In this document: one piece after another, positions 27,419 to 63,727 of the stretch
How the letters are laid out: the number at the start of each line of letters is the position of its first letter
Position numbering within the stretch: the stretch's first letter is position 1
Assembly (NCBI GenBank): GCA_947626085.1
Contig: CANQQU010000005.1
Location: 3,342-67,341, forward strand
Source: an uncultured Oscillospiraceae bacterium
Lineage (GTDB): Bacteria; Bacillota; Clostridia; Oscillospirales; Oscillospiraceae
Direction: 5' to 3'
DNA: 64,000 nucleotides
The notes under the pieces: model-generated
Seen by the model: the letters and a program-made list of their open reading frames with translations, nothing else
Told to the model about the DNA's origin: nothing
Database searches by the model: none
Translations under genes and position numbers: made by a program

Positions 27419-27436
27419 GACAGCCCACCGTGAAAT

Positions 27437-27500
27437 CTGTGCCGCCGGATGGCAAGGTTGTGCGGTTTTGGTTGCATCACACGGCGGCAAATTGTACATT
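27437..27500 (+). promoter_or_regulatory. Box C: CTGTGCCG (27437-27444) and TTGTGCGG (27458-27465), then TACATT at 27495-27500
   Basis: It has the same 21-bp phasing and 29-nt gap. It lies upstream of the second GH3. Confidence 0.6.
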
Positions 27501-27536
27501 GTGTATGTTAAGACTACTAAAGGGAGGAAAACCGAT

Positions 27537-30500
27537 ATGAGCAAGAACCCTAAGAAAAAAGGCACGCTGTGGGCGGTCCTCACCGCAGCGCTGGCGGTTT
27601 TTCTGGCAGTTCTCATCGCGGCAATCCCGGTGACGGCCTATTATGAGACCATGATCAACGCCGCCCTGAATGCACGGACCCAGAAAATCATCCCCGGGGA
27701 GGATTCCAGCATCTTCTATTGGACGGAGTATGAGACAGAGGAAGCCCTGACGGAAAATGATTTTGATATTTGCCGTCAGGTGATGGCGGAGGGGGCGGTG
27801 CTCCTGCTCAATCGGGATCAGACCCTGCCTCTGCCTGCGGAAACAAAATTCTCCCTCTTTTCCCAGTCCGCGGCGGACCCGGTGCTCACCGGCACTGGCT
27901 CGGCTTTCATGGCCACCGGCGACGCCGTGAGCTTTTACGGAGCCCTGGAGGACAGCTTCGCTCCCGGCTGCGTCAACCAGGAGGTGTGGAAATTCTACAA
28001 GACCTCCGGCTATAAGCGGGTCAACGCGGATCTGGCTGGCGGCGGCCCGGAGCAGTACCGGATCAACGAGGTGCCCTGGGAGAAATACCCCGAGGCGGTT
28101 AAGGCCACTTTCTCCGATTTTGGGGATGTGGCGCTGGTGGTGCTGTCCCGCTCCTCAGGAGAGGGGGCGGACCTTCCCAGCGGTCTGCCCGAGCTGGAGG
28201 AGTATATGACGGACGGCGACTACCTCCGGCTCTGCCCGGAGGAGGAGGAACTGCTGGAAAACCTGCGGCAGCTCAAGGAGGACGGTGTATTCCGCCGGAT
28301 CGTGGTGCTGCTGAACTCCTCCAGCACCCTGCAGCTGGATTTTCTGGACAAATATGAGATCGATGCCCTGCTGTGGGTGGGCAATTTGGGGCTGAACGGC
28401 ATTCCAGCGGTGGCGGACATCCTGGCGGGGAAGGTCAATCCCTCCGGCCGGATCGTGGATACCTTCCAGAAGGACAACCACGCCGCCCCCGCCATGCAGA
28501 ACTATGATGCCTTTCCCTACACCAACGCAGAGGAGCTGGGCCTGGAGTTCGCCCAGAACAACAACGCCCCCGGGATCGAAAAGTGCAACCGGAATTATGT
28601 GGTCTACCAGGAAGGCATTTATGTGGGCTACCGCTATTTTGAGACCCGGTATGAAGACTACGTTTTGAACCAGGGCAATCCGGGGGACTACCGCTATGAC
28701 GAGCTGGTGGCCTTCCCCTTTGGCTGCGGCTTGAGCTATACCACCTTTGAATATTCCAATTTTGCCATCTCCGACCTGGGCGACGCCATCCGGGCGGAGG
28801 TGGACGTGACCAACACCGGCAGCGTAGACGGAAGCCACACAGTGCAGATTTATTTCCAGTCCCCCTACACCCAGTATGACCGGGAAAACGGGGTGGAGAA
28901 GTCCGCCGTGGAGCTGTGTGGCTTCGACAAGAAGCTGATACCCGCCGGGGCCACAGAGCATTTTTCCATCGAGATTGCCAAGGACGATCTGACCAGCTAT
29001 GATGCCAACAACGCCAGGACCTACATCCTGGACGCGGGAGACTACTATTTTACCGTGGGGACCGACGCCCACGACGCCGTCAACAACATCCTCACCGCCA
29101 AAGGTGCGGACCCCTCCCGCATGAGCGGCACGGGGAACGCCTCCCTCGCCGCCAAGTGGACCCTGGATGCCCTGGACAACACAACCTATGCCGTTTCCGC
29201 CTACACCGGCGTGGCGGTCACTAACCGCTTCGACGATGCGGACCTGAACAAGTACGAGGGGGCGGAGGGCCAGACCGTCACCTATTTGACCCGTTCCGAC
29301 TGGACTGGCACCTTCCCCAGTCCCCAGATCCTGTATGTGACGGATCAGATGTGGGCGGACGGCCTGACCCACAACGAGGACGAGCGGGCCGCCATCGCGG
29401 AAAAGATGAAGGCGCTCTACTGGTCCGACGCCGCCCTGGCTCCCAGCGGCGTGGCCGGGGACGGGAAGGCCATCGATTTTGTGGAGACGTCCTATGATAA
29501 CCCCGCCTGGGACGGCCTCATCAGCCAGATCCCCTATGGTGATATGCTGGACACCATCTACAACGGTGCTTACAACACCCACGCCCAGCCCGCCATCAAC
29601 CTGCCGGGGACCTCGGAATCCGACGGCCCCACCGGCTACACCAAGAGTCTGATGGGCGGTGCCAGCGGCATGGCTTTCCCCTCCGAGGACGTTTTGGCCG
29701 CCTCCTTTGACCGGGAGCTTGCCAAGCTGGTGGGCAAGTGCATGGGGGAGGATATGCTCCACAGCAACCAAAACAGCGGGGAAACCACCATGGCGGGCAT
29801 CTACGCCCCCGGCGCCAACATCCACCGGAGCCAGTATCTGGGCCGCCATAACGAGTATTATTCCGAGGACGGCTGGCTCTCCGGCGAGATCTGCGCCGCC
29901 CAGGTCCAGGGGATCCGGGACCGGGGGATGCTTGCCTTTGTGAAGCACTATGCCCTCAACGATCAGGAGGAGGGCCGATACGGCATCAGCGTCTGGGCCA
30001 ACGAGCAGGCCATCCGGGAACTCTACCTGGAGTCCTTTGAAGGTGCGATTCGGGGCGGTGCCATGAACGTGATGACCAGCTTCAACCGAATCGGCGTGGT
30101 CTGGTCCGGCAGTCACTATGGCCTGATGACCGGCATCCTCCGGGATGAGTGGGGGATGCAGGGAGCCGCCGTCACGGATATGTCCATGAATGCCAAGTGG
30201 ATGGATTACCGCCTTGGCATCCTGGCAGGCCAGGACCTCTGGTGCGGCCAGAAGGGGACTATGGGCACCCTGGACGGCAGTGAGAACGATCCCGCCATCA
30301 CCAGCGCGGTCCACCGGGCTATGAAAAACATCGTCTATTCCGTCACCCGCACCAACGCAATGAACGTAGGCGATGCCACCGTCATTGCAGTGACGCCGGA
30401 GTGGAAAATCGTCCTGTATGCCGCCACGGCGGTCACCGCCGTACTGACCGCCTTGTGCGCCGGCTTGTGGATTCTCCGCCGGTGGGCCGGAAAACAGTAG
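27537..30500 (+). CDS. Glycoside hydrolase family 3, permuted, doubly membrane-anchored (paralog 2)
   Basis: The start is MSKNPKKKGTLWAVLTAALAVFL (signal anchor). It carries KHYALNDQEEGR and the nucleophile motif GMQGAAVTDMS. The C-terminal TM helix is followed by RRWAGKQ. Confidence 0.85.
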   Translation: MSKNPKKKGTLWAVLTAALAVFLAVLIAAIPVTAYYETMINAALNARTQKIIPGEDSSIFYWTEYETEEALTENDFDICRQVMAEGAVLLLNRDQTLPLPAETKFSLFSQSAADPVLTGTGSAFMATGDAVSFYGALEDSFAPGCVNQEVWKFYKTSGYKRVNADLAGGGPEQYRINEVPWEKYPEAVKATFSDFGDVALVVLSRSSGEGADLPSGLPELEEYMTDGDYLRLCPEEEELLENLRQLKEDGVFRRIVVLLNSSSTLQLDFLDKYEIDALLWVGNLGLNGIPAVADILAGKVNPSGRIVDTFQKDNHAAPAMQNYDAFPYTNAEELGLEFAQNNNAPGIEKCNRNYVVYQEGIYVGYRYFETRYEDYVLNQGNPGDYRYDELVAFPFGCGLSYTTFEYSNFAISDLGDAIRAEVDVTNTGSVDGSHTVQIYFQSPYTQYDRENGVEKSAVELCGFDKKLIPAGATEHFSIEIAKDDLTSYDANNARTYILDAGDYYFTVGTDAHDAVNNILTAKGADPSRMSGTGNASLAAKWTLDALDNTTYAVSAYTGVAVTNRFDDADLNKYEGAEGQTVTYLTRSDWTGTFPSPQILYVTDQMWADGLTHNEDERAAIAEKMKALYWSDAALAPSGVAGDGKAIDFVETSYDNPAWDGLISQIPYGDMLDTIYNGAYNTHAQPAINLPGTSESDGPTGYTKSLMGGASGMAFPSEDVLAASFDRELAKLVGKCMGEDMLHSNQNSGETTMAGIYAPGANIHRSQYLGRHNEYYSEDGWLSGEICAAQVQGIRDRGMLAFVKHYALNDQEEGRYGISVWANEQAIRELYLESFEGAIRGGAMNVMTSFNRIGVVWSGSHYGLMTGILRDEWGMQGAAVTDMSMNAKWMDYRLGILAGQDLWCGQKGTMGTLDGSENDPAITSAVHRAMKNIVYSVTRTNAMNVGDATVIAVTPEWKIVLYAATAVTAVLTALCAGLWILRRWAGKQ

Positions 30501-30551
30501 ATTTCAGCGCCGGGCTTTGGCCCGGCGCCTTTCCGCAGCCCAACATGAAAT

Positions 30552-30615
30552 CTGTGCCGCCGGATGGCAAGGTTGTGCGGTTTTGGTTGCATCACGCGGG
30601 GAAAAATTGTACATT
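30552..30615 (+). promoter_or_regulatory. Box D: CTGTGCCG (30552-30559) and TTGTGCGG (30573-30580), then TACATT at 30610-30615
   Basis: It is a near-identical copy of box C and lies upstream of the third GH3. Confidence 0.6.
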
Positions 30616-30651
30616 GTGTATGCTAAGACTACCAAAGGGAGGAAAACCGAT

Positions 30652-33621
30652 ATGAGCAAAAACCCCAAGAAAAAAGGCACGCTTTGGGCGGTCCTCACCG
30701 CCGTCACCGCCGTGCTGCTGATCATTTCCATTGTGGCGATCCCCATCACCAACTTTTTCTCCACCGCCATCAACGTGGCCCTGGGGGCCGTGACCCAGAA
30801 GGTGGTCCCCGACCCCGACGCAAAGATCTACTTCTGGTCCAACTACGACAGCGAGGAGGATCTGGTGGCTTTCGAGAAGCAGCTCTGCCGGGACATCGAG
30901 GGCGAGGGCGCGGCCCTGCTCGTGAACCGGGACAACACCCTGCCCCTTCCAGAAGGGACCAAGTTCACCCCCTTCTCCCAGTCCTCCTTTAACCTCCTCT
31001 ACGGCGGCACCGGCTCCGGCCAGGTCTCCGCCGATGACGCGGTCTCCCTGAAATCCGCCCTGGAGGAGTCCTTCGGCGAGAATACGGTGAACCTGGACCA
31101 GTGGAAATTCTACGCCACCTGCGGCTATGCCCGGGTCAATGCGGACACCACCGGCGGCAACCAGGCCCAGTACCGGATCAACGAGGTGCCCTGGGAGAAG
31201 TACACCGACGCCCTGCAGAGTACCTGGAGCGACTACGGCGACGTGGCCCTGGTGGTCCTGGCCCGGTCCGGCGGCGAGGGCGCGGATTTGCCCAGCGGCC
31301 TGCCGGAGCTGGAAGAGTACATGACGGATGGCGACTATCTCCGCCTGAACCGGGACGAACTGGATATGTTCGAGCATCTGGAGCAGCTGAAGAACGAGGG
31401 CGTCTTTAAGAAGATCGTGGTGCTGCTCAACTCCTCCAACACCCTGCAGCTGGACTTCGTGGACGACTATGGCATCGACGCGGTGCTGTGGATCGGCGAT
31501 GTGGGCATGACCGGTATCAACGCTGTCGCGGATATTTTGGCGGGCAAGATCAATCCCTCCGGCCGGATCGTAGACACCTTCCTGAAGGACAACCACTCCA
31601 GCCCCGCTATGCAGAATTTCGGCGCGTTCCCCTATACTAACGGAGCGGACTACAATGTGGCCACTGCCCAGAACAACACCGACCCTGGCATCAACAAGTG
31701 CAACCGGGACTATGTGGTCTACGCCGAGGGCATCTATGTGGGCTATCGGTACTATGAGACTCGTTATGAGGACTTTGTGCTGAATCAGGGCAACGCCGGG
31801 GACTATGACTATGACTCCGATGTAGCCTTCCCCTTCGGCTTTGGTCTGAGCTACACTGATTTCGCCTACTCTAATTTTAAAGTGGAGGATCAGGGCCAGA
31901 CCTTCCAGGTGGAGGTGGATGTGACCAACACCGGCGCGGTGGACGGCAAGCACACGGTGCAGATCTACTTCCAATCCCCCTACACCCAGTACGATATTGA
32001 CAACCAAGTGGAGAAAGCCGCCGTGGAGCTGTGCGGCTTCGACAAGAAGATGATCCCCGCCGGGGAAACCGAGCATTTCACCATCACGGTCAACAAGGAA
32101 GACCTGACTTCCTACGACCATATGAATGCCAAGACCTACATCTTGGACGCCGGGGACTACTACTTCACCGTGGGCAAGAATGCGCATGACGCGGTAAACA
32201 ACATCCTGATGGCCAAGGGCGCGGACGCGAGCCGCATGAGCGGTACCGGAGACGCCTCTCTGACCTACAAGTGGACTCTGGACGCTCTGGACAGCACCAC
32301 CTATGCGGTTTCCAGCAAGACCGGCAAGCCCATTACGAACCTCTTTGAAAACGCGGACCTGAACAAGTATGAGGGCGCCCAGGGCCAGACGGTCACTTAT
32401 CTGACCCGTTCCGACTGGACCGGCACCTTCCCCCAGACAGTGACCCTTTCCATCACCGACCAGATGTGGGCCGACGGCCTGACCCATGAGGAGGCAGGCA
32501 GGGTCGCCATCGTGGAGAAAATGAAGAGCCAGTATTATCCCGACGCTACCATGCCCGCCATGGGTGTGTCCGGCAGTCTCACCGCCGGCCAGTTTGCCGA
32601 GAAAGCAGCCGATGATCCGGATTGGGACCAGCTCATTGCCCAGATCCCTTATTCCGAGATGACCAACGTTATTTACAACGGCTTCCATCTGACCCAGCCG
32701 GTGCCCTCCATCGGTCTGCCCGGCACCAACGATGAAAACGGACCCCAGGGCTTCACCAAGAGCCTGGTGGGCGGTTCCTCCGCCATGGCCTACACCTCCG
32801 AGGATGTGATGGCCGCCACCTACAACCGGGAGCTCATTGAGAACATGGGCAAGTGCATCGGCGAGGACTTCCTCCACGCCACCGACGGCTCCGGCACCGT
32901 GTTCTCCGGCATCTATGGCCCCGGCGCCAACATCCACCGCACGCCTTACTCCGGCCGGAACTTTGAGTACTACTCCGAGGACGGCTGGCTGGCCGGGCAG
33001 GTCGCCTCCGTGGAGGTGGCCGCCATTCAGGACCGGGGCGTGTATGTGTTCACCAAGCACTTTGCCCTGAACGATCAGGAGGAAGGCCGCTACGGCATCT
33101 CCACCTGGTCTAACGAGCAGGCCATCCGGGAATTGTACCTGGAGGGTTTTGAAGGCAGCGTGAAGAACGGCGGCGGCATGGGCGTCATGAGCTCCTTCAA
33201 CCGGATCGGCGTCACCTGGTCCGGCGCGCACCACGGCCTGATGACCGGCATCCTCCGGGATGAATGGGGCATGACCGGCGCGGCCATCACCGACTGCTCC
33301 GTCATGGCCAATTACATGGACTACCGTATGGGCGTCCTGGCCGGCCAGGATCTTTGGGACGGCTATAGCAGCGGCATGGCCACTCTGGACGGCCTGGACA
33401 GTGATCCCGCCATCGTCACCGCGGTGCAGAACGCGGTGAAGCACATCACCTATTCCATCAGCCACAGCCACGCCATGAATGTGGGCAACGCCACCGTGGT
33501 GCTGGTAACGCCGGCATGGCAAATGGCCCTGTATATCCTGACGGGTGTGCTGGCAGTCCTCACCGCCGGATGCGCCGCGATGCTGGTGATCACCCGCCGG
33601 AAGGCCAAAAAGAACCAATAA
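30652..33621 (+). CDS. Glycoside hydrolase family 3, permuted, doubly membrane-anchored (paralog 3)
   Basis: It has the same architecture as paralog 2: MSKNPKKKGTLWAVLTAVTAVLL, KHFALNDQEEGR and GMTGAAITDCS. The C-terminal TM helix is followed by TRRKAKKNQ. Confidence 0.85.
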   Translation: MSKNPKKKGTLWAVLTAVTAVLLIISIVAIPITNFFSTAINVALGAVTQKVVPDPDAKIYFWSNYDSEEDLVAFEKQLCRDIEGEGAALLVNRDNTLPLPEGTKFTPFSQSSFNLLYGGTGSGQVSADDAVSLKSALEESFGENTVNLDQWKFYATCGYARVNADTTGGNQAQYRINEVPWEKYTDALQSTWSDYGDVALVVLARSGGEGADLPSGLPELEEYMTDGDYLRLNRDELDMFEHLEQLKNEGVFKKIVVLLNSSNTLQLDFVDDYGIDAVLWIGDVGMTGINAVADILAGKINPSGRIVDTFLKDNHSSPAMQNFGAFPYTNGADYNVATAQNNTDPGINKCNRDYVVYAEGIYVGYRYYETRYEDFVLNQGNAGDYDYDSDVAFPFGFGLSYTDFAYSNFKVEDQGQTFQVEVDVTNTGAVDGKHTVQIYFQSPYTQYDIDNQVEKAAVELCGFDKKMIPAGETEHFTITVNKEDLTSYDHMNAKTYILDAGDYYFTVGKNAHDAVNNILMAKGADASRMSGTGDASLTYKWTLDALDSTTYAVSSKTGKPITNLFENADLNKYEGAQGQTVTYLTRSDWTGTFPQTVTLSITDQMWADGLTHEEAGRVAIVEKMKSQYYPDATMPAMGVSGSLTAGQFAEKAADDPDWDQLIAQIPYSEMTNVIYNGFHLTQPVPSIGLPGTNDENGPQGFTKSLVGGSSAMAYTSEDVMAATYNRELIENMGKCIGEDFLHATDGSGTVFSGIYGPGANIHRTPYSGRNFEYYSEDGWLAGQVASVEVAAIQDRGVYVFTKHFALNDQEEGRYGISTWSNEQAIRELYLEGFEGSVKNGGGMGVMSSFNRIGVTWSGAHHGLMTGILRDEWGMTGAAITDCSVMANYMDYRMGVLAGQDLWDGYSSGMATLDGLDSDPAIVTAVQNAVKHITYSISHSHAMNVGNATVVLVTPAWQMALYILTGVLAVLTAGCAAMLVITRRKAKKNQ

Positions 33622-43413: not shown

Positions 43414-43442
43414 TTGTATATTTCCCAAAAATGTGATACGAT
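43414..43442 (+). promoter_or_regulatory. Candidate promoter TTGTAT-17 nt-TACGAT for the structured RNA
   Basis: The spacing is exactly 17 nt. The predicted start near 43449 coincides with the 5' strand of the closing helix. Confidence 0.5.
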
Positions 43443-43447
43443 ATCTT

Positions 43448-44058
43448 TTAGACGGCGCAGTATCCTAGTCGAAGCGGCCGGTTCCCAAGAAGGGCCTAAA
43501 AATCCTTTGAAGGGCATATCGATGAAGTCCCTGGTGTTTGCTTTTTGCGCCCAGCTTAGGGTGGATGCTGGGGGTTAAGGATCCCGGGCGCACCCCAATG
43601 GCATGGGGTATCCGACCCGGTTTCCGTGGAGACCTTTTCTTGTGCGACGGCGGAAGAGCCCCTGTTGGACCCGTCCGCGTACGAACTAGGTATGAACCTG
43701 CAAGGCGGTGCACAGAATCGTGTGCTGCGTGCAGAGTAGCCTGCCTTGCGTGGGTATGCGGGGAAAGGGGACAGGCGGAACGTTTCATGGCCATGGAATT
43801 TCCGCTATTGCTCCTGGAAACCATGCCTGCAAAAGAGGCTAAGAATCGGATCGCTTCGCAGTGGAAAACACCTAGGCTGTCTTAACCGGGCGGGCAGGGG
43901 ATTGCAGTACGGACTCAGTGGCAATCGGGTAGTCAGAACCGGCAACGCCTGAACAGACGGATCAAACGGAAACGGCCCGCACGGCAACGGCGGGTACCGT
44001 CCGGGGAAAACCAACCCGACCTAAGCCGTAAGATTTATCCTGCCTGCCGCCGTCTTAC
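43448..44058 (+). ncRNA. ole: Candidate OLE (ornate, large, extremophilic) RNA, about 610 nt
   Basis: The stretch of about 600 nt has no credible ORF. A long-range closing helix pairs GACGGCGCAG (43451-43460) with CTGCCGCCGTC (44044-44054), and there are many internal GC hairpins. It lies immediately upstream of a 4-TM DxxxD protein and dxs-tlyA-nadK-argR-recN, the published OLE context. No terminator separates it from the next gene. Confidence 0.6.
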
Positions 44059-44085
44059 TTAAACAATAAGGAGCGTTTCTTCCAA

Positions 44086-44691: not shown

Positions 44692-46551
44692 GTGAGCATA
44701 TTGGAAAATATTCAGGGCCATCAGGACCTGCTGTGCCTGAACAATCAGGAGAGGCTCATTCTGTGCCGGGAGATCCGGGAATTTTTGGTCAGGAACGTCT
44801 CTCAAACCGGGGGCCATCTGGCCTCCAATTTAGGCGTGGTGGAGTTGACGGTGGCTTTGGAGACGGTATTTGATACCGCCGTTGACCGCCTGGTATTTGA
44901 CGTGGGTCATCAGTCTTATGTTCATAAGCTGCTGACCGGCCGCCAGGCGGATTTTAAGCGTCTGCGCCAGTTTGGCGGCATGGCGGGCTTTCCCAAGCCG
45001 GAGGAGAGCGATACCGACGCCTTTGTGGCGGGCCACGCCTCCAGCGCGGTGTCCGTGGCCCTGGGAATGGCCCGGGCAAGGACGCTGATGGGGGAGACCT
45101 ACTGCGTGGCCGCTGTTCTGGGGGACGGGGCCGCCACAGGGGGCTTGGCCTTCGAGGGCCTCAGCGATACCGCCGTCAGCGGGGAGCCCATGGTTATCAT
45201 TCTCAACGACAATGAGATGTCCATCGACAAAAATGTGGGGGGCCTTGCCAAGCACCTGGCCCATCTGCGCACCGACCAGCGGTATCTGGACATCAAGCAG
45301 TGGTACAAGCGGGCGCTGCTGAAAATTCCCGGCGGCGCCGCCCTCTATCGGTTTTCGCACAATCTGAAAAGCTGGCTCAAGCGTTCCCTGATCCCCTCCA
45401 CCATCTTTGACGAGATGGGCCTGACCTATTTGGGCCCGGTGGACGGCCACGATCTGCCCGCGCTTATCGCCTTGCTGCAATACGCGAAGAACGCGGAAAA
45501 GCCGGTGGTGGTCCATGTGCTGACCCAGAAGGGCCGGGGCTACGCCCCGGCGGAGCAGGACCCAGCCAAGTTCCATGGCGTGGGACCCTTCGATCCCGTC
45601 ACCGGCGAGGTGCCGGAAAAGGCCTGCGAGACCTTTTCCAAGCGGTTCGGGGAAGTTCTGTGCCATCTGGCGGAGGAGGATCGACGAATCTGCGCCATTA
45701 CCGCCGCCATGCCCGGTGGGACTGGGCTGCTGCCTTTCAAGGAGCTGTTTCCCAACCGCCTGTTCGACGTGGGCATTGCCGAGGGCCACGCCGTTACCAT
45801 GGCCGGGGGCCTTGCCAAGCAGGGCATGATCCCCGTAGCGGCCATCTATTCCACCTTCCTCCAGCGGTCCTATGATATGATCCTCCAGGACGTGGTCATG
45901 CTGGGACTCCATGTGGTGCTGGCGGTGGACCGGGCAGGACTGGTGGGCGAGGACGGGGCCACCCATCAAGGCACCTTCGATGTGGGATTTCTCCGTCAGG
46001 CCCCGGGATTGACCCTATTGGCCCCCGGCAGCCTGCTGGAATTGGAGCAAATGCTGACCTGGGCGGTCAAGGAGCAGTCCGGCCCCGTGGCGATCCGCTA
46101 TTCCCGGGGCGGGGAAGGGTCCTACCGGGATTCCGACTGGGGCGAGGGGCGGGTCTGCCGCCACAGAACCGGCGGGGACGCCGCGATTTTGACCTATGGA
46201 TGCCGGATGCTGGACAACGCCCTGGCGGCGGCGGACCGCCTGGCCGGGGAGGGGATTCAGTTAACGGTGCTGCGGCTGCTGGAGTTGTCCCCGCTGCCGT
46301 CGGAGGAGGTCCTTGCCCTGCTGCCCGACGGGCCCCTGATCATCGCGGAGGAGACCTGCGCCGGCGCCGGGATCAAGGAAGCTCTTGCCTGGGAGCTGGA
46401 GAGGCTGGGATTCGGCGGGACCGTTTTGGGCCTGGATCTGGGGCACCGGTTCATCCCCCACGGAGACATGAAATCCCTCTATGGGATGTGCGGCTTGGAC
46501 GGGGAATCCCTTGCCGCCGCCGTGAGAAAGGCGGTGGGCCGTGAAGATTAA
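44692..46551 (+). CDS. dxs: 1-deoxy-D-xylulose-5-phosphate synthase
   Basis: 619 aa with a GTG start. The TPP motif is LGDGAATGG, and DVGIAEGHAVTMAGGLA is present. Confidence 0.9.
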   Translation: MSILENIQGHQDLLCLNNQERLILCREIREFLVRNVSQTGGHLASNLGVVELTVALETVFDTAVDRLVFDVGHQSYVHKLLTGRQADFKRLRQFGGMAGFPKPEESDTDAFVAGHASSAVSVALGMARARTLMGETYCVAAVLGDGAATGGLAFEGLSDTAVSGEPMVIILNDNEMSIDKNVGGLAKHLAHLRTDQRYLDIKQWYKRALLKIPGGAALYRFSHNLKSWLKRSLIPSTIFDEMGLTYLGPVDGHDLPALIALLQYAKNAEKPVVVHVLTQKGRGYAPAEQDPAKFHGVGPFDPVTGEVPEKACETFSKRFGEVLCHLAEEDRRICAITAAMPGGTGLLPFKELFPNRLFDVGIAEGHAVTMAGGLAKQGMIPVAAIYSTFLQRSYDMILQDVVMLGLHVVLAVDRAGLVGEDGATHQGTFDVGFLRQAPGLTLLAPGSLLELEQMLTWAVKEQSGPVAIRYSRGGEGSYRDSDWGEGRVCRHRTGGDAAILTYGCRMLDNALAAADRLAGEGIQLTVLRLLELSPLPSEEVLALLPDGPLIIAEETCAGAGIKEALAWELERLGFGGTVLGLDLGHRFIPHGDMKSLYGMCGLDGESLAAAVRKAVGRED

Positions 46552-50380: not shown

Positions 50381-50386
50381 ACTACC

Positions 50387-50638
50387 AACGCGATGAAGGG
50401 ATGCTTAGTCGCCCCCAACCCCTCCAGAGAGCTGCCGGTCGGTGCGAGGCAGCGGGGCAGGCGATGAAATTACCTCCCGGAGCGGCCCGCCTGAAAAGTT
50501 GTAGGGCGGGACGGGTCGGCCCGATAGCGCCGGGGTGTGCTTCACACCGTGAGGGCATGGCCGGGAGGCCCTGCCGAATCAGAGGTGGTACCGCGTAAAT
50601 TACGCCCTCTGTCCAATTGGACAGGGGGATTTTCATTT
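50387..50638 (+). promoter_or_regulatory. T-box leader (tRNA-sensing riboswitch), probable Tyr specifier
   Basis: It has the AGAGAG box and a distal GGTGCGAGG loop. GAAATTACC contains UAC. The T-box sequence AGAGGTGGTACCGCG lies at 50581-50595. The terminator CCCTCTGTCC-AATT-GGACAGGGGG is followed by a T-run at 50605-50638. Confidence 0.85.
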
Positions 50639-50651
50639 GGGAGGGAGAAAA

Positions 50652-51287
50652 ATGGTAAACATCACTTATTTGGGCCACGCCTGCTTCCTGCTGGAGGCGG
50701 AGGGCTACCGGACGGTGCTGGACCCATACGCAAACGGCGCCGTGCCGGGCCTTTTGGACCTGGATCTGGCGGCGGAAGCGGTGTATTGCAGCCACGGCCA
50801 CGGGGACCACAACGCCGCGGACCGGGTGAAGCTGACCCGGACGGCTCTCCGGCCCCCTTACACCCTGGCCGAGATTCCCGTGCCCCACGACGACGCCGGC
50901 GGTGCCAAGCGGGGGATGTGTACCGCCCGGGTGTTTGACTTCGGCGGCCTCCGGGTGGCCCACCTGGGGGACATCGGCCGGACGCTGACCCAGGAGGAGG
51001 CGGAAATTTTGGCGGGTGTGGACTGCCTGCTCCTGCCGGTGGGCGGCTTTTTCACCGTGGACGCGGCTCAGGCCGCCCAGATCGTCCGGCAGGCGGGGGC
51101 GAAGGTCGTGATCCCCATGCACTACCGGACGAAAACCACCGGCTATCCCGTCATCGGCAAGCTGGACCGATTCACCCGGCAGTTTGGCGCCGTCTATCAG
51201 GAGGGCGACACCCTGGCCCTGACGGTGGATACCCCGGCGGGGATCCATGTACTCAAACAAAAAATGGCAAAAGGAGAAGAATCATGA
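50652..51287 (+). CDS. MBL-fold metallo-hydrolase
   Basis: It has the HxHxDH motif (CSHGHGDHN). It lies between the T-box leader and tyrS, with an ATGA overlap to tyrS. Confidence 0.75.
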   Translation: MVNITYLGHACFLLEAEGYRTVLDPYANGAVPGLLDLDLAAEAVYCSHGHGDHNAADRVKLTRTALRPPYTLAEIPVPHDDAGGAKRGMCTARVFDFGGLRVAHLGDIGRTLTQEEAEILAGVDCLLLPVGGFFTVDAAQAAQIVRQAGAKVVIPMHYRTKTTGYPVIGKLDRFTRQFGAVYQEGDTLALTVDTPAGIHVLKQKMAKGEES

Positions 51288-52507
51288 AGCTTTACGACGA
51301 GCTGGTGGCCCGGGGGTTGATCGCCCAGGTCACGGATGAAAACGAGATCCGCACCATGATCGACGAGGGCAAGGCCACCTTCTATATCGGCTTTGACTGC
51401 ACGGCGGACAGCCTGACCGCCGGGCATTTCATGGCTCTGACCCTGATGAAGCGGCTGCAAATGGCGGGGAACAAGCCCATCGCCCTGATCGGCGGGGGCA
51501 CCACCATGATCGGAGACCCCTCCGGCCGGACGGATATGCGGAAAATGCTGACCAAGGAGGACATCGACCACAACGCCGCCTGCTTCAAGCGGCAGATGGA
51601 GCGGTTCATCGAATTCGGCCCGGGCAAGGCCCAGATGGTGAACAATGCGGACTGGCTGCTGGATTTGAATTATGTTAACCTTTTGCGGGAGGTGGGGGCC
51701 TGCTTCTCCGTGAACAATATGCTCCGGGCGGAGTGCTATAAGCAGCGGATGGAGCGGGGACTGTCCTTCCTGGAGTTCAACTACATGATCATGCAGTCCT
51801 ACGACTTTTACTACCTGTTCCAGCACTACGGCTGCAATATGCAGTTTGGCGGCAACGACCAGTGGAGCAATATGCTGGGCGGCACCGAGCTGATTCGCCG
51901 GAAGCTGGGCAAGGACGCCCACGCCATGACCATCACCCTGCTCACCGACTCCCAGGGCAATAAGATGGGCAAGACCGCCGGCAACGCCGTCTGGCTGGAC
52001 CCCAACAAGACCAGCCCCTTTGACTTCTACCAGTACTGGCGGAACGTGGGAGACGCGGACGTGATGAAGTGCGTCCGGATGCTGACCTTCCTGCCCATGG
52101 AGCAGATCGCGGAGATGGACGCCTGGAAGGACGCCAAGCTCAACGAGGCCAAGGAGATCCTGGCCTTCGAGCTGACCAAGCTGGTCCACGGTCCGGAGGA
52201 GGCGGAGAAGGCCCAGGCCGCCGCTCGGGCCCTGTTTGCCGGTTCCGGGACATCCGGGGAGATGCCCACCACCAAGATCCAGCCGGAGGCGCAGAAGGAC
52301 GGGAAAATCGGCATTCTGACCTTGATGGTTTCCTGCGGCCTGGCCGCCTCCAACGGCGAGGCCCGCCGCCTGGTGCAGCAGGGGGGCGTGTTCCTGAACG
52401 GGGACAAGGTCCCCGGAGCCGACGCCGCCGTTACCGAGGATCAGCTCCGGGCCGGGGCGGTCCTGCGCAAGGGCAAAAAGGTCTTCCACAAGGCGATCCT
52501 GGACTAA
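51284..52507 (+). CDS. tyrS: Tyrosine--tRNA ligase
   Basis: It has a HIGH-like TAGHFM, the KMSKS variant KMGKT, and a C-terminal S4 domain. Confidence 0.9.
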   Translation: MKLYDELVARGLIAQVTDENEIRTMIDEGKATFYIGFDCTADSLTAGHFMALTLMKRLQMAGNKPIALIGGGTTMIGDPSGRTDMRKMLTKEDIDHNAACFKRQMERFIEFGPGKAQMVNNADWLLDLNYVNLLREVGACFSVNNMLRAECYKQRMERGLSFLEFNYMIMQSYDFYYLFQHYGCNMQFGGNDQWSNMLGGTELIRRKLGKDAHAMTITLLTDSQGNKMGKTAGNAVWLDPNKTSPFDFYQYWRNVGDADVMKCVRMLTFLPMEQIAEMDAWKDAKLNEAKEILAFELTKLVHGPEEAEKAQAAARALFAGSGTSGEMPTTKIQPEAQKDGKIGILTLMVSCGLAASNGEARRLVQQGGVFLNGDKVPGADAAVTEDQLRAGAVLRKGKKVFHKAILD

Positions 52508-54780: not shown

Positions 54781-54823
54781 AACAGAACCGCTCCGAAGGC
54801 CCAATCTTCGGAGCGGTTCTGTT
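54781..54823. terminator. Bidirectional 18-bp stem-loop between convergent genes
   Basis: AACAGAACCGCTCCGAAG-N7-CTTCGGAGCGGTTCTGTT. Confidence 0.7.
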
Positions 54824-54833
54824 CGATTGGCGT

Positions 54834-55553
54834 TTAGCGGTTGTGGCCGAATTGGATTTTGGGGTCGGAGAATTCCTTCACTCGCTGATCGAAGGCGGCC
54901 CGGGCCGCCTGGGGGTAGGGGAGTTGGGCCTCCACCCCGGCCAGGCCAAGAAAGTAGGCGCAGAAATCCGGGTTCAGCACCAGCAGGGGACCCAGCAGCT
55001 GGGTGCAGATCAGATTCTTCTTCCGCAGGCCCTCCAGCTTGCTCGCCGGATTCAGGCCCACGCCCCGGACGCACTTGAGAAAATAGGAATCGGTATTGTC
55101 CCCATAGAGGAAGCTGAACTGGCTCTTGAAGCCCACCACGGTCCTGCCGCCCATGTCCCCCAGGACCTTGCCGTTGAACCGGCGGAACAGGTCGGTTTTC
55201 ACCGTCACATCAAAAATGCCCAGGCCCTGGACCTTCACGCCCTCGGTGATAAAGTCGATCTCCCGGGCGAACAGCTCGGAGGCGTTGCCCGTGGCCAGGA
55301 TGGGCACGCCCGCGTCGATCAGCTCCTCCAAGCGGGCCTTGAATGGCCGCAGCTTTTCCAAAACTCGGCGCTGGGCGTCCTCGGTCATGGCGCCGATATA
55401 GAGAAGATCCACCGGATGTGTGGCAAAATAGGGCTCCTCCGTAAAGGGCGTATAGTGAAAGTCCCACTGGGGGCAGGCCATGGCCAAATATTTTCCGTTG
55501 TAAGCATCCCCGTAGAGGCCGCAGATCTCGGGAAATAGAATTTCAGCGGTCAT
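54834..55553 (-). CDS. GatD-like (CobB/CobQ-type glutamine-amidotransferase fold) protein lacking the canonical catalytic Cys and His
   Basis: The start MTAEILFPEICGLYGDAYNG has an ATGA overlap with the upstream ligase gene. It aligns by eye with GatD blocks (LYxDxGN, IGxxxxxxQ, GLGIxD, VGFxxxxG, KNLxxTxLxGP). At the CGG nucleophile position it reads ILATGNASE, and at the HGP position it reads TQLLGP. Confidence 0.65.
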   Translation of the reverse strand: MTAEILFPEICGLYGDAYNGKYLAMACPQWDFHYTPFTEEPYFATHPVDLLYIGAMTEDAQRRVLEKLRPFKARLEELIDAGVPILATGNASELFAREIDFITEGVKVQGLGIFDVTVKTDLFRRFNGKVLGDMGGRTVVGFKSQFSFLYGDNTDSYFLKCVRGVGLNPASKLEGLRKKNLICTQLLGPLLVLNPDFCAYFLGLAGVEAQLPYPQAARAAFDQRVKEFSDPKIQFGHNR

Positions 55554-56920
55554 TTCCCGGCCTCCTTTTCCAGCAGGGCCTTTTTCACGCTCAGCGCCTC
55601 TTTGTCCAGGTACACATCGTACAGGATATAGATATCCCGGCATTTTTCGGTGTCCACCAGATGGCCGCCGCCCTGGAAGGAGGGCCACAGGGCGATCTTT
55701 TCCTGAGGAACCCCGGCGATCAGCGCCCGCAGCTGCTGATCCAGGCACCGGGGCCCGGAAAAGACCAACTGGGAGATGGAGGGATGGGCCAGGGGGCTGT
55801 AATCGCAGTCATAGATCCAGCAGGGATTCTCCGAGCTGCCCTGGCTGTCCCCCTTGTCGTCGATGAGGAAGAACACCGCCTTATTTTCCCCGGGCTGATC
55901 CGCCACATACTGGAAGCTCCGGGCGCAGGCGTCGGGGTTCTGCCCCTTGGCCGACTGCATGGTGATTTTCAGCCCGCCGGATTCCACATGGTCATAGCGG
56001 CTCTTCACGATCTCCACGGTGTCCAGCCCGGCGGCGATCTTCTCTGGGGACAGGCCAAGCCGGGACAGCACCGCCACCACGCAGCACTGGTTGTAGATGT
56101 TCACGATATTGTCGTTCAGGAGCTTATAGGTCTGGGGCTGCCCGTCCTGGGAAATGGCGACCGTTCCCGCCTCCCGGCAGATTTCCGTCACCAGAAAATC
56201 CGGGGCAGGGGAGGCATGGCCGCAGCTGGGGCAGCGCATCCGGCCAATGTGGTCATAGCGCAGGTATTCCGCCTCCAGCTTTCCGCCGCAGTGGGGGCAG
56301 TACACCAGGTCCAGCCCCTCCAGATCGGGCGCCCCTTCGGGGGCCTCCGCCTGAATGCCGAAATAGGTCCGTTCCGCGCACTGGGGCGCCAGCTCGGCGC
56401 AGATCAGATCGTCCCCATTGAGGATCAGCTTGGTTCCGGCGGGGATCGCCTTGTCCAGAAGATAGCGGATAAAGCCGGGGTGGGCGTTGCGCTTGATGGA
56501 GTCCCGCATCACATTGGTGCAGACCAGATAGTCTGGTTTCAGGTCCCCATACACCAGCAGAGAGCTGCGCTCGTCCACCTCCAGCACGGCGGCGTCGGTC
56601 TTTACTCGGCCGGAAAGAGTGGCGTTTTCCAGCAGCGCGGCGACCACGCCGCCCTGAATATTGGAGCCTAGGGCGTTGTTGGCCACCGTGTAGCCACTTT
56701 TCCGCAGCAAGGAGGTGAGCAGGTTGCTCACCGTGGTTTTTCCATTGGTGCCGGTGACGGCGATCACCGTCTTAGGCGGAATGATGTGGGCCAGAATGTC
56801 CGGGCACAGCTTCACCGCCAGCTTTCCCGGCAGATAGGAGGCGTTGCGGCCCAGAAGCCGCATGGCCAGCCTGACGGCCTTGGCCATCCAGAGGGCGAAG
56901 TAAAACCGCAGCTTTTTCAA
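55550..56920 (-). CDS. MurT-like Mur-ligase-family protein (central ATPase domain, 4-Cys ribbon, DUF1727-type C-domain)
   Basis: The P-loop is VTGTNGKTTVSNL and the Zn ribbon is CPHCGG...CPSCGH. The C-terminal CWIYDCDY resembles the MurT block SWIYDADF. Confidence 0.75.
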   Translation of the reverse strand: MKKLRFYFALWMAKAVRLAMRLLGRNASYLPGKLAVKLCPDILAHIIPPKTVIAVTGTNGKTTVSNLLTSLLRKSGYTVANNALGSNIQGGVVAALLENATLSGRVKTDAAVLEVDERSSLLVYGDLKPDYLVCTNVMRDSIKRNAHPGFIRYLLDKAIPAGTKLILNGDDLICAELAPQCAERTYFGIQAEAPEGAPDLEGLDLVYCPHCGGKLEAEYLRYDHIGRMRCPSCGHASPAPDFLVTEICREAGTVAISQDGQPQTYKLLNDNIVNIYNQCCVVAVLSRLGLSPEKIAAGLDTVEIVKSRYDHVESGGLKITMQSAKGQNPDACARSFQYVADQPGENKAVFFLIDDKGDSQGSSENPCWIYDCDYSPLAHPSISQLVFSGPRCLDQQLRALIAGVPQEKIALWPSFQGGGHLVDTEKCRDIYILYDVYLDKEALSVKKALLEKEAGK

Positions 56921-56948
56921 AAGATCACGTCTTCTCTATCCGAAATTT

Positions 56949-58199
56949 TTACAGGATCTCCTGGACCGACTTTTTCAGCAGCTCCAGGCCCCGCAGGAGG
57001 ATCGGCTCCTCGATTACCAGGGGCGGCATCAGCTTGAGGACCTGGTTGTCCCGGCCCACCCGCTCGGCGATCAAGCCGTTGTGGAAGCAGGCGGCCACCA
57101 GGGGCTTGGTCATGTCCTTGCCGAAGGCGCCGAAGTCCACACCCCAGAGAAGCCCTAAGCCCCGGTATTGGATTCGGCTGTCCAGAGGCGCGATCTCCTC
57201 CCGGAGGAAGGCCTCCACCAGCTTGCCCTTTTCCTGGACCTGCCGCTCCACCTGCTCTTCCACCATGATCTCCAGGCCCGCCAGGCCCGCCACCATGGAC
57301 AGCTGATTGCCCCGGAAGGTGCCGGTGTGCTGGCCGGGCTCCCAGAAATCCAGCTCGGGCTTGAACAGCACCAGGCTCAGCGGCATTCCACAGCCGCCGA
57401 TGGACTTGGATAATGTCACGATATCGGGCACGATCCCCGCCCGCTCGAAGGAGAAGAAGGTGCCGGTCCGGCCGTTTCCCACCTGAATGTCGTCCACCAT
57501 CAGCAAAATGCCATACTTGTCGCACAGAGCCCGCAGCCGCCGGAGCCATTCCACCGGCAGCACATAGATGCCGCCGTCGGCCTGCAGGGTCTCGATCACC
57601 ACGGCGGCGGGCTTCTCCGCGCCGGAGTGGTCGTCGGTCAGCAGCCGCTCCATGTAGTCGATGGTGTCCAGCTCCGGGAACATATAGGGGGCGGGGACGT
57701 GGACCACGTTCCCCATGACCGCCCCGGCGCCCTCCCGGCTGGACCGGTCGGTGGTCAGGGCCAGAGCGCCCAGAGTCATGCCATGGAACGCGCCCATCAG
57801 GGCAAAGACGGTCTGCCGCCCGGTGCTTTTCCGGGCGATCTTCAGCGCCGCCTCCACCGCGTTGGTGCCGGTGGGACCGGCGAACTGGATCTTGTAATTC
57901 AGGCCCTTCTTTTCCAGGATGTTCTTTTCAAAGTATTCCAGAAACGCCCGCTTGGCGGGGGTATAGAAGTCCATACCGTGGAGGATTCCATCGTTTTCCA
58001 GATATTCGATCATCCGCTTCTTCATTTTGTCCGGATTGTGGCCGTAGTTCAATGCGCCGGAGCCGGCGAAGAAATCCACATATTCCCGGCCTTCCTCGTC
58101 CCAGATCAGGGCGCCCTTGGCCCGGGTGAGGACGGTGGGGAAGCTGCGGCAGTAGGAGCGGACGTTGGACTCGTAGTTTTCAAAAACCGAGGTGTTCAT
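56949..58199 (-). CDS. Class-III aminotransferase, diaminobutyrate--2-oxoglutarate transaminase (EctB/Dat)-like
   Basis: It reads FENYESNVRSYCRSFPTVLTRAKGALIWDEEGREYVDFFAGSGALNYGHN. The PLP lysine lies in TLSKSIGG. No ectA or ectC is nearby. Confidence 0.7.
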   Translation of the reverse strand: MNTSVFENYESNVRSYCRSFPTVLTRAKGALIWDEEGREYVDFFAGSGALNYGHNPDKMKKRMIEYLENDGILHGMDFYTPAKRAFLEYFEKNILEKKGLNYKIQFAGPTGTNAVEAALKIARKSTGRQTVFALMGAFHGMTLGALALTTDRSSREGAGAVMGNVVHVPAPYMFPELDTIDYMERLLTDDHSGAEKPAAVVIETLQADGGIYVLPVEWLRRLRALCDKYGILLMVDDIQVGNGRTGTFFSFERAGIVPDIVTLSKSIGGCGMPLSLVLFKPELDFWEPGQHTGTFRGNQLSMVAGLAGLEIMVEEQVERQVQEKGKLVEAFLREEIAPLDSRIQYRGLGLLWGVDFGAFGKDMTKPLVAACFHNGLIAERVGRDNQVLKLMPPLVIEEPILLRGLELLKKSVQEIL

Positions 58200-58240
58200 T
58201 TTAAGACTTCCTTATTTTAGGATGGGAAAACGCTACGCAC

Positions 58241-58269
58241 AATATACCACAGCCCGCCCGCAAAATCAA
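58241..58269 (-). promoter_or_regulatory. Promoter TTGATT-17 nt-TATATT for the aminotransferase/ligase operon
   Basis: Read on the minus strand, with exact 17-nt spacing. It lies about 40 nt upstream of the ATG. Confidence 0.5.
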
Positions 58270-62725: not shown

Positions 62726-63727
62726 TCAGCCCTTCAGCGCCTCTTCCACGGCCACCGCCACGGAGACCGTCGCGCCGACCATGGGGTTGTTGCCCATACC
62801 CAGGAAGCCCATCATTTCCACATGGGCGGGCACGGAGGAGGAGCCGGCGAACTGGGCGTCGGAGTGCATCCGGCCCATGGTGTCGGTCATGCCGTAGGAG
62901 GCGGGACCGGCGGCCATGTTGTCGGGATGCAGGGTCCGGCCGGTGCCGCCGCCGGAGGCCACGGAGAAGTACTTCTTGCCCTGCTCCACACACTCCTTCT
63001 TGTAGGTGCCGGCCACGGGATGCTGGAACCGGGTGGGGTTGGTGGAGTTGCCGGTGATGGACACGTCCACGCCCTCGTGGTGCATGATGGCCACGCCCTC
63101 CCGGACGTCGTCGGCGCCGAAGCAGCGGACGGCGGCCCGCTCGCCGTCGGAGTACTTGTACTCCTTGACGATGTGCAGCTCGCCGGTGTAGTAGTCGAAC
63201 TGGGTCTGCACATAGGTGAAGCCGTTGATCCGGCTGATGATCTGAGCGGCGTCCTTGCCCAGGCCGTTCAGGATGACCCGCAGGGGCTCCTTCCGGGCCT
63301 TGTTGGCGGAGCGGGCGATGCCGATAGCGCCCTCGGCGGCGGCGAAGGACTCGTGGCCGGCCAGGAAGGCGAAGCACTTGGTCTCGTCCCGCAGGAGCAT
63401 GGCGCCCAGGTTGCCGTGGCCCAGACCCACCTTCCGGTCCTCAGCCACGGAGCCGGGGATGCAGAAGGCCTGCAGGCCGATGCCGATAGCCTCGGCGGCC
63501 TCGGCGGCGTTCTTCACGTTCTTCTTCAGGGCGATGGCGGCGCCCACGGTGTAGGCCCAGGCGGCGTCCTCAAAGCAGATGGGCTGGATATTCTTGGTGA
63601 TGGTGTAAGGATCAAAGCCCTTGGCCTGGCAAATCTCCCGGCATTCCTCCACGCTGGAGATGCCGTACTGGGCCAGGACCCCGTTGATCTTGTCGATTTT
63701 CCGTTCGTAACCTTCAAACAAAGCCAT
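62726..63727 (-). CDS. GGGtGRT-family protein
   Basis: It contains the signature ASGGGTGRTLHPDN. 333 aa. Confidence 0.75.
   Translation of the reverse strand: MALFEGYERKIDKINGVLAQYGISSVEECREICQAKGFDPYTITKNIQPICFEDAAWAYTVGAAIALKKNVKNAAEAAEAIGIGLQAFCIPGSVAEDRKVGLGHGNLGAMLLRDETKCFAFLAGHESFAAAEGAIGIARSANKARKEPLRVILNGLGKDAAQIISRINGFTYVQTQFDYYTGELHIVKEYKYSDGERAAVRCFGADDVREGVAIMHHEGVDVSITGNSTNPTRFQHPVAGTYKKECVEQGKKYFSVASGGGTGRTLHPDNMAAGPASYGMTDTMGRMHSDAQFAGSSSVPAHVEMMGFLGMGNNPMVGATVSVAVAVEEALKG

Follow-up and report, generated by a model that had tools for sequence, protein, structure and literature searches.

The operon and its three genes

The 64,000-nucleotide stretch of contig CANQQU010000005.1 analyzed here, which comes from an uncultured Oscillospiraceae bacterium and is called the window throughout, carries at 54781-58269 three co-directional minus-strand genes, as given by the list of open reading frames: an aminotransferase (AT), a MurT-like ligase and a GatD-like protein. 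Our subject is the ligase pair, whose GatD-like member has neither the cysteine nor the histidine of the GatD glutaminase, together with the amine that such a pair may use and the significance of the AT encoded ahead of it. The operon is laid out as follows.

58241-58269, minus strand: promoter-like site found by scan (TTGATT, 17-nucleotide (nt) spacer, TG-extended TATATT)
56949-58199, minus strand: first gene, the AT, a predicted L-2,4-diaminobutyrate (DABA):2-oxoglutarate aminotransferase of the EctB/Dat family, 416 amino acids (aa)
57402-57410, minus strand: pyridoxal phosphate-binding SKS of the AT, with an invariant lysine
55550-56920, minus strand: MurT-like Mur-family ligase (Mur_ligase_M + MurT_C/DUF1727), 456 aa, TTG start
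54834-55553, minus strand: GatD-like pseudo-glutaminase, 239 aa, ATG start at 55553
54781-54823, minus strand: intrinsic terminator ending the operon, with an 18-bp stem (10 GC pairs) and a T-run

The start codon of the AT (ATG, 58199) is preceded by AAGGAAG, which resembles a ribosome binding site, the MurT-like gene has its TTG start 28 nt past the AT stop, and the MurT-like stop and GatD-like start share an ATGA overlap indicative of translational coupling. The 304-aa open reading frame that the program listed for the GatD-like gene is an upstream over-extension, as homologues all begin at the Met of 55553. A scan of the operon found no convincing internal terminator, and no riboswitch or RNA leader reached the gathering threshold in the 5′ region, where the sole match was a chance miRNA hit (E 0.64). 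On one side the operon is flanked by a gene for a beta-phosphoglucomutase-like HAD protein, followed by a ROK kinase and a GH65 phosphorylase, and on the other by GDPD and then an MFS transporter; these genes are unrelated and oppositely oriented, and the AT, MurT-like and GatD-like genes therefore form a self-contained three-gene operon. An initial annotation of this locus had already placed the AT in one transcription unit with the pair, and the 28-nt gap, the single promoter ahead of the AT and the terminator behind the GatD-like gene agree with this at the level of the sequence. The remaining genes of the window serve carbohydrate utilization and housekeeping. No second MurT/GatD homologue, canonical or other, is present within the 64 kb, and no ligase other than the MurT-like protein is encoded in the vicinity, either in the window or in its relatives.

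The AT matches Pfam Aminotran_3 (E 8.5e-74) and passes two NCBIfam models, PRK09264 for DABA transaminase (574 bits, cutoff 438) and TIGR00709 (441 bits, cutoff 402), while staying below the ectoine EctB equivalog TIGR02407 (542 bits, cutoff 552). Its best matches in the PDB are the EctB structures 9s1q and 6rl5 at E 1e-123, with the next-best family at ~1e-58. At ~50% identity to characterized EctB enzymes it is predicted to make L-2,4-diaminobutyrate, and its first description as diaminobutyrate-transaminase-like holds. It thus belongs to the same enzyme family as the EctB/Dat proteins of the ectoine, 1,3-diaminopropane and siderophore pathways, but unlike these it shares an operon with an amide ligase: ectA and ectC are found neither in the operon, as had been noted before, nor among the annotated genes of the window, and no DABA-consuming DABA decarboxylase is found in the operon or nearby.

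The glutaminase triad, the ligase machinery and the family of the pair

In family models the GatD-like protein scores low, with 22.7 bits against Pfam GATase_3 (27-bit gathering cutoff) and 49.6 and 32.4 bits against the NCBIfam GatD equivalogs (cutoffs 450 and 400), and its AlphaFold model (predicted local distance difference test, pLDDT, 88.9) superposes best on GatD 5n9m with a template-modelling score (TM) of 0.84. HMMER alignment to Staphylococcus aureus GatD established the equivalences of its former catalytic positions, listed here with the retained arginine.

55275-55298, minus strand: LATGNASE at the nucleophile elbow, with Gly89 for Cys94 and Asn90-Ala91 for the oxyanion Gly-Gly
54987-55004, minus strand: TQLLGP, with Leu187 for the catalytic His189 of the HGP motif
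55179-55181, minus strand: Arg125, which corresponds to Arg128, the residue that sequesters glutamine in S. aureus GatD, with 95% conservation across the family

The claim that the GatD-like protein has no Cys or His at the catalytic positions is confirmed by this alignment. In addition, and going beyond what had been proposed, the aspartate contributed by MurT is also gone, so that all three residues of the MurT/GatD triad are replaced (Cys94 by Gly89, His189 by Leu187 and MurT Asp349 by Asn365). In S. aureus the exchanges C94G/S and D349N abolish glutamine-dependent amidation of lipid II (PMC6113224, PMC3266927). As the triad is replaced family-wide, the complex should be unable to draw ammonia from glutamine, and we consider it very probable that the ligase pair works independently of glutamine. 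Given the loss of the three triad residues and the failure to reach both NCBIfam cutoffs, we would not classify the pair as a glutamine-hydrolysing lipid II isoglutaminyl synthase, EC 6.3.5.13.

The replacement of the triad is accompanied by a new and conserved set of residues. In the family-profile alignment of the 150 best-scoring representatives, (T/V/I)-G-N-(A/S)-x-(E/D) takes the place of the I-C-G-G-Y-Q of GatD, and (L/I/V)-G-P that of H-G-P, with one Cys and one His exception, a regularity that goes far past anything chance would produce. Among 132 full-length representatives, whose mean identity is ~35%, the Cys94 position is Gly in 89%, while Arg125, Glu58, Gln61, Glu174-Gly175, Asn180, Thr184, Gly188-Pro189 and Asn194 are 87-99% conserved, and this pocket set (Glu58 to Asn194) is mostly identical to that of canonical GatD. 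Gly15, at the subunit interface, is conserved in 92% of representatives; C11 and C183 are conserved in the window's own clade and not family-wide. Orthologues have a mean column identity of 77%. Judged by these patterns, the pocket of the GatD-like protein is maintained with its hydrolytic residues exchanged for a new conserved set, and the protein, which is under strong purifying selection and has an invariant motif of its own, is not degenerate. Retention of the pocket residues and of Arg125 (the S. aureus R128A mutant is inactive), together with the new TGNAxE motif, argues for a ligand-binding role rather than that of a passive scaffold, and the earlier picture of a degenerate GatD serving as a scaffold is therefore not one we retain. 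What the pocket binds, we infer, would be an amino-acid-like ligand.

The MurT-like protein has matches above gathering to Pfam Mur_ligase_M and MurT_C and can be aligned from end to end with S. aureus MurT (PDB 7q8e, E 6.8e-43), although it too is below the NCBIfam MurT equivalog cutoff of 800 (166 and 146 bits). Its AlphaFold model (pLDDT 84.6) finds MurT structures as its best folds, at E 8e-29 and TM up to 0.78. The motifs discussed below, for which the roles of the catalytic residues are taken from PMC6085368 and PMC6113224, are located as follows.

56732-56752, minus strand: ATP-binding P-loop GTNGKTT, invariant in the family
56480-56506, minus strand: loop RDSIKRNAH (RDQMDRFGE in canonical MurT), with the family signature RDSxxRNA(H/N)
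56222-56299, minus strand: four-Cys zinc-ribbon insertion, CPHC...CPSC
55802-55831, minus strand: ENPCWIYDCD, with Asn365 at the position of S. aureus MurT Asp349, Glu364 before it, and Trp368 kept

The P-loop, four-Cys ribbon and WIYD block are kept, as originally described. Retained and family-invariant are likewise the acceptor-binding Asn of GSN, the Mg-binding EVDE, the hinge Arg, K..NP, the Zn ribbon and the interface Trp368. The RDxxDR block had been called divergent, which is only in part correct: compared with loop 135-143 of Streptococcus pneumoniae MurT, D139 is changed to K and E143 to H, but the functionally important Arg, Asp and Arg are kept. In S. pneumoniae MurT mutating this Arg/Asp/Arg set is harmful, while the two acidic residues that are changed here have minor effects (PMC6085368). 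Residues 140-146 of the model have low pLDDT, matching the disordered loop 137-141 of S. pneumoniae MurT. The position equivalent to Asp349 is variable across the MurT-like family and is preceded by a 4-residue insertion and the family-invariant Glu364, which stands ahead of a WxY(D/E)xD block. The DNAAD motif, implicated in stem-peptide binding, is not kept (DDKGD with an insertion). By its motifs, then, the MurT-like ligase subunit is catalytically intact.

The pair belongs to a populous family. GatD-like relatives number 1551 at E<=1e-3 in a 90%-clustered database, and an exhaustive profile search of 1.84 billion 50%-identity representatives returned 212 clusters at E<=1e-30 and 666 at E<=1e-10. 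In their sources these proteins are named 'DUF1727 domain-containing protein', 'hypothetical protein' or 'CobQ-like glutamine amidotransferase family enzyme', and NCBIfam holds no model for the Cys-less GatD-like/MurT-like family. A scan of one genome per species gave 128 relatives, the best 80 of which are all metagenome-assembled genomes (MAGs) of Oscillospiraceae (many of them Faecousia), Acutalibacteraceae and further uncultured Clostridia from gut or rumen; the nearest relatives of the window pair (93-95%) are rabbit-gut Oscillospiraceae MAGs. On the strength of these sequence patterns the TGNA-type pair is a large, old subfamily without prior characterization, and not a product of decay.

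The two proteins are consistently encoded together, with the MurT-like gene directly upstream of the GatD-like gene in 92/92 loci, and natural MurT-like::GatD-like single-chain fusions of 698-758 aa exist (P0123, P0130/P0301 at L088:5529-7715, P0151, and P0198 at L091:544-2820). The coupling, the fusions and the conserved Trp/Gly pair at the interface suggest that the two subunits form a physical complex. One metagenomic contig carries two complete Cys-less pairs in tandem (L089:4629-8797), the first GatD-like protein (P0155) reading ITGNAMD and TYLIGP and the second FTGNTIE and TYLLGP, and such tandem paralogous pairs suggest diversified specificity. One of the fusions has as neighbours a gene that matches F420_ligase (PF01996) and a GerE-type regulator, suggesting that the family also occurs outside Clostridia. 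A class IV aminotransferase gene beside a fusion, considered as a D-amino-acid transaminase, proved to be IlvE (459 vs 307 bits).

Compared with the MurT/GatD systems of S. aureus, S. pneumoniae, S. pyogenes and M. tuberculosis, the pair has the same coupled two-gene organization, MurT architecture, P-loop, acceptor Asn, Mg-binding acidic pair and interface Trp, and its GatD-like subunit has the canonical fold (TM 0.84), the extra C-terminal helix, the LYGDxGN N-terminal motif and the glutamine-sequestering Arg. It differs from them in the exchange of Cys for Gly, His for Leu/Ile and the MurT Asp for a variable residue, in the TGNAxE and RDSxxRNAH motifs and the 4-residue insertion with its invariant Glu, in its ~23-30% identity to them and in its frequent link to a DABA AT. 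The ligase fold and acyl-phosphate chemistry are also shared by MurC-F, the pseudomurein pMur ligases and the M domain of cyanophycin synthetase, which are among the fold matches and couple an amino acid, not ammonia; these enzymes, however, lack a GatD-like partner, the Zn ribbon and MurT_C, and act on UDP-linked or polymer substrates.

Aminotransferase linkage and candidate functions

The association with the AT is not confined to the window. Among 71 pair loci that have at least 1.5 kb of upstream sequence, 34 carry a co-directional adjacent AT at gaps of 25-147 nt, which lies upstream, as in the window, in 33 of the 34. In the remaining locus, from the distant 'Eubacterium sp.' L087, the AT is downstream, has 57% identity to the window AT and passes the EctB equivalog. 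AT-linked and unlinked pairs form separate sequence clades. In the reverse census, in which an AT alignment was scanned against metagenome contigs, 80 AT loci (55-73% identity) were recovered. A Cys-less pair lies upstream in 26 of them, 31 show no pair despite sufficient flank, and 23 are too short; the GatD-like proteins of AT-linked loci are all of the TGNA/xGP type. Dereplication at 95% AT identity left 29 lineages. Six are linked to the pair (one of these also to an ATP-grasp gene), nine further lineages have the AT beside an ATPgrasp_ST or ATPgrasp_TupA ligase, and in the others the neighbours are prfA/B, glyS, thiI or sortase genes. The gene orders comprise AT-pair, pair-AT, pair-AT-alr-MOP flippase and pair-ATPgrasp_ST-yigZ-AT. 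The linkage of AT and pair thus recurs in at least five lineages and four gene orders, and the solitary ectB-like gene of gut Clostridia adjoins an ATP-dependent carboxylate-amine ligase, from differing superfamilies, in about half of the lineages, with ectA, ectC and decarboxylase genes absent from its vicinity. That the gene combination is undescribed, as first supposed, agrees with our literature search, which found no description of the Cys-less GatD family, of its ectB-like link or of genes for amine substitution of D-Glu.

Several of these neighbourhoods deserve description in their own right. In L104, L114, L117, L118, L119 and L128 the AT lies at ~4500-5750 with an ATP-grasp gene (PF14397, 'sugar-transfer associated', sometimes in two copies) just downstream; L118 carries two AT copies, L157/L158/L162 belong to the same AT/ATP-grasp set, and the TupA-like ATP-grasp is PF14305. 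These AT/ATP-grasp co-operons may represent a second uncharacterized association of diaminobutyrate with a ligase. A replacement of the pair by ATP-grasp at a syntenic site was considered (L128 vs L130), but the shared trxB is only 40% identical and synteny was not established. Loci L130-L145 (for example L130:2297-9614), from many human-gut samples, encode in addition to the MurT-like protein, GatD-like protein and AT an alr gene, a flippase of the MOP family (Polysacc_synt) and a 355-aa protein that matches no family. The alanine-racemase-family gene adjacent to some pairs was considered as a DABA racemase, which is not supported as it passes the alr equivalog (344 vs 168 bits); the L086 copy is a borderline alr (173 vs 168 bits). 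At L084:7801-11912 and about 20 other Faecousia loci without an AT, convergent genes for a GtrA-family protein and a type Ic aspartate aminotransferase come after the pair, and then one for a type III glutamine synthetase; this neighbourhood is conserved, yet on other transcription units.

The sampled distant members of the family are found in other contexts, of a cell-envelope or housekeeping kind: with ftsW/rodA directly upstream and a HAD gene after the pair, in an abundant gut species; between ftsY and a downstream alanine racemase gene (alr); ahead of rpmG-secE-nusG with bacA nearby; and followed by a Peptidase_M50 gene. The neighbours ftsW/rodA, alr and bacA point to peptidoglycan, and a peptidoglycan precursor is probably the acceptor, with the D-Glu of lipid II as the inferred site.

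We therefore propose, tentatively, that the products of the operon are a DABA aminotransferase and an ATP-dependent carboxylate-amine ligase of two subunits that derives from MurT/GatD. In this proposal the MurT-like subunit would bind a lipid-linked peptidoglycan precursor and phosphorylate a carboxylate of the stem peptide, most likely the D-iso-Glu alpha-carboxyl as in MurT, and the activated carboxylate would then be coupled to an amine of non-glutamine origin. In the window lineage the preferred amine would be L-2,4-diaminobutyrate or a close derivative, formed from aspartate semialdehyde by the co-transcribed AT. The GatD-like protein would stay an obligatory partner, a former hydrolase that has become a module without hydrolytic activity and yet binds an amino-acid-like ligand. 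DABA is ranked first among donors because it covers the dead glutaminase, the AT linkage in several architectures, the AT/ATP-grasp partnerships and the tandem pairs; even so, its assignment (or that of a derivative) as the donor is a provisional one, and the full chain, in which a ligase independent of glutamine adds diaminobutyrate to a carboxylate of a peptidoglycan precursor, may well fail in one of its links. Generalized to the whole family, the proposal would make the TGNA-type proteins a class of enzymes by which a diamino acid (L- or D-2,4-diaminobutyrate) is joined to the lipid II D-Glu alpha-carboxyl as a cationic decoration or as the anchor of a 2-4 (group B-like) cross-link, with the glutaminase subunit re-used as an amino-acid-binding module and tandem pairs adding different residues, an extension that is speculative and somewhat unlikely.

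Chemistry of the proposed kind has precedents. The alpha-carboxyl of D-Glu is the site of the group B (2-4) cross-links of the Schleifer and Kandler scheme, which run via a diamino acid, including diaminobutyrate, and it carries cadaverine or putrescine in Selenomonas and Veillonella and Gly or D-Ala-amide in some actinobacteria. To our knowledge, no gene has been assigned to any of these substitution steps. All share with our proposal the amide linkage of a non-ammonia amine to the alpha-carboxyl at the stage of a lipid intermediate. Such substitutions are reviewed in PMC11382707, and N-acetylputrescine occurs on D-Glu in Cyanophora (PMC3266927). In the literature we found none of the known D-Glu amine chemotypes reported for Oscillospiraceae or Acutalibacteraceae; peptidoglycan types of Ruminococcaceae/Oscillospiraceae genera are listed as undetermined, save for meso-diaminopimelate in Faecalibacterium (PMC11382707).

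Several observations weigh against DABA as the donor. An adjacent AT is missing from roughly half of the related loci in Oscillospirales and from most of the distant members sampled. At strict thresholds no residue in either subunit separates AT-linked from unlinked pairs, and the weak differences that appear at relaxed thresholds follow the clades and are missing in the distant linked L087. If no residue separates the two groups, DABA use would have to be family-wide with the AT encoded elsewhere. The canonical GatD site is >40 Å from the ATP gamma-phosphate in the open form and ~20 Å in the modelled closed form (PMC6113224), and over a distance of 20-40 Å between GatD and ligase a donor held in the GatD-like pocket could not attack directly. 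The linkage itself could have another origin, as diaminobutyrate could be a peptidoglycan building block installed by MurE or by ATP-grasp. Finally, by analogy with the NH3-dependent S. aureus MurT/GatD-C94G, ammonia would suffice to explain the loss of the triad.

This last point leads to the strongest rival, lipid II amidation dependent on ammonia, in which free NH3/NH4+ would yield D-iso-glutamine, the GatD-like protein would be a structural or allosteric partner, perhaps with an ammonium entry site, and the AT link would reflect DABA as another wall building block or an accident of gene order. We regard this as a serious possibility, though one that we would not expect to prevail. The earlier suggestion of an amine other than glutamine-derived ammonia accordingly stands as far as glutamine is concerned, its use being very improbable after the loss of the triad, but with free ammonia as a strong rival to DABA it does not settle the donor. 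The closest experimental parallel is the C94G mutant of S. aureus GatD (Munch et al. 2012, PMC3266927), which likewise has Gly at the nucleophile position, and whose complex amidates with free ammonia only at pH 8.5 and needs GatD for this, MurT alone being inactive. The C94G complex, however, carries a single exchange made in the laboratory and has His189 and Asp349 still in place, whereas here the whole triad is replaced and a new motif conserved; moreover, the wild-type S. aureus enzyme uses NH3 at pH 8.5 and not at pH 7.5 (PMC3266927). The ammonia reading agrees with the intact ligase machinery and interface hot-spot (Trp368 with Gly15), with the organization of most family members as bicistronic units that stand alone in housekeeping contexts and lack an amine-supply gene, with the failure of any specificity residues to track AT linkage, and with the habitat of the carriers, which are gut and rumen anaerobes of ammonia-rich environments. 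The human ammonia-using CPS1, with its glutaminase-fold domain, is also among the fold matches of the GatD-like protein as an analogue. In vertebrate CPS1 an inactive glutaminase-fold domain is kept as a structural part and free ammonia is the substrate, yet this is an unrelated synthetase in a single polypeptide and is of use as an analogy only. What ammonia leaves unexplained is the AT linkage in at least five lineages and four gene orders, the AT/ATP-grasp linkage and the tandem paralogous pairs, and it gives no reason for a scaffold to keep the Arg and the pocket at 87-96% while gaining a near-invariant T-G-N-A-x-E.

A substrate outside peptidoglycan is decidedly unlikely. The pair would then act on a carboxylate of another lipid-linked envelope glycopolymer or in the formation of a soluble DABA metabolite, with peptidoglycan served by a canonical murT-gatD elsewhere or not amidated. 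The scores far under the NCBIfam equivalog cutoffs for both proteins (166 vs 800 and 49.6 vs 450) and the DNAAD motif that is not conserved (DDKGD with an insertion) are consistent with such a change of substrate, as is the presence in some clusters of a MOP-family flippase (Polysacc_synt) or a 'sugar-transfer associated' ATP-grasp. Speaking for peptidoglycan, in contrast, are the full-length collinearity with MurT, including the N-terminal region, the acceptor-carboxylate Asn and the Zn ribbon, the ftsW/rodA, alr and bacA neighbours, the lack of a second pair in the 64-kb window, and the housekeeping-like and very widespread nature of the family.

It is very improbable that the GatD-like protein is a cryptic glutaminase that hydrolyses glutamine or another amide via other residues, such as Thr88, Asn90 and Glu93 together with Glu364 of the MurT-like protein. 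Such an activity could account for the near-invariant motif exactly at the former nucleophile elbow, the invariant Glu beside the former Asp349 position and the retained glutamine-sequestering Arg; against it, no Cys, Ser or His at the elbow is conserved across the family and the oxyanion Gly-Gly is replaced by Asn-Ala, and we know of no precedent of this kind in class I amidotransferases. Thr88 as an alternative nucleophile was rejected, as the ungapped elbow alignment puts it at nucleophile-minus-1, where it would point away from the pocket. Lastly, the chance that the pair is a non-functional remnant of a decaying murT-gatD paralogue is negligible: despite the loss of all catalytic triad residues, it is refuted by the conservation data, namely intact frames with translational coupling, 77% mean column identity among orthologues, motifs shared by hundreds of divergent clusters, and natural fusions.

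DABA coupled to a peptidoglycan precursor thus remains the reading that we put first. The recurrence of the three-gene unit, with the AT joined to the pair in several lineages and gene orders, and the rejection of a glutamine-hydrolysing MurT/GatD are in line with the initial annotation.

Other features of the window and implications

The window contains several further elements unrelated to the operon. A full-length ornate large extremophilic (OLE) RNA (430 bits; 43436-44069, plus strand) is located ~620 nt upstream of dxs (44692-46551) in a dxs...recN region. A group II intron at 4217-6953 (minus strand), with Rfam matches to D1-D4 and D5-D6 and an intron-encoded open reading frame at 4378-6291, coincides with an island of low GC content (0.49-0.51 vs ~0.61 elsewhere). 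Within 50384-52507 (plus strand) a metallo-beta-lactamase-fold gene (50637-51287) follows a T-box leader (102 bits) and overlaps by 4 nt a tyrS-like gene (51284-52507, called tyrS from a look at the sequence alone), and given this overlap the two genes appear to be one unit under the control of the T-box. Three large paralogous GH3-type proteins (plus strand; 21693-24584, 27393-30500 and 30517-33621) have a permuted Pfam order, with Glyco_hydro_3_C first, then Fn3-like, then the Glyco_hydro_3 N-domain, and lie within a carbohydrate-utilization cluster with GH43, GH2, rhamnosidase, FGGY kinase and a fucose-isomerase-like gene. Near the end of the window is a gene for a GGGtGRT-family protein of unknown function (PF14057, 657 bits; 62726-63727, minus strand).

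MurT/GatD carries out an essential and drug-targeted step of wall synthesis in Gram-positive pathogens, and the state of the D-Glu alpha-carboxyl controls transpeptidation as well as the recognition of peptidoglycan fragments by NOD1/NOD2. With a sister family of about the diversity of the canonical one, incapable of using glutamine and widespread in dominant gut Clostridia, genome-based predictions of 'amidated peptidoglycan' for such organisms would be unsafe, and the walls of the gut Clostridia that carry it may bear an undescribed modification. If the donor is ammonia, the family would represent a natural case of an amidotransferase that has come to depend on ammonia and keeps a conserved pseudo-enzyme as its subunit. 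If it is diaminobutyrate, this would be the first gene assignment for an amine substitution of D-Glu, a gap since the Schleifer-Kandler classification, and would account for the common occurrence of solitary ectB-like genes among gut anaerobes.

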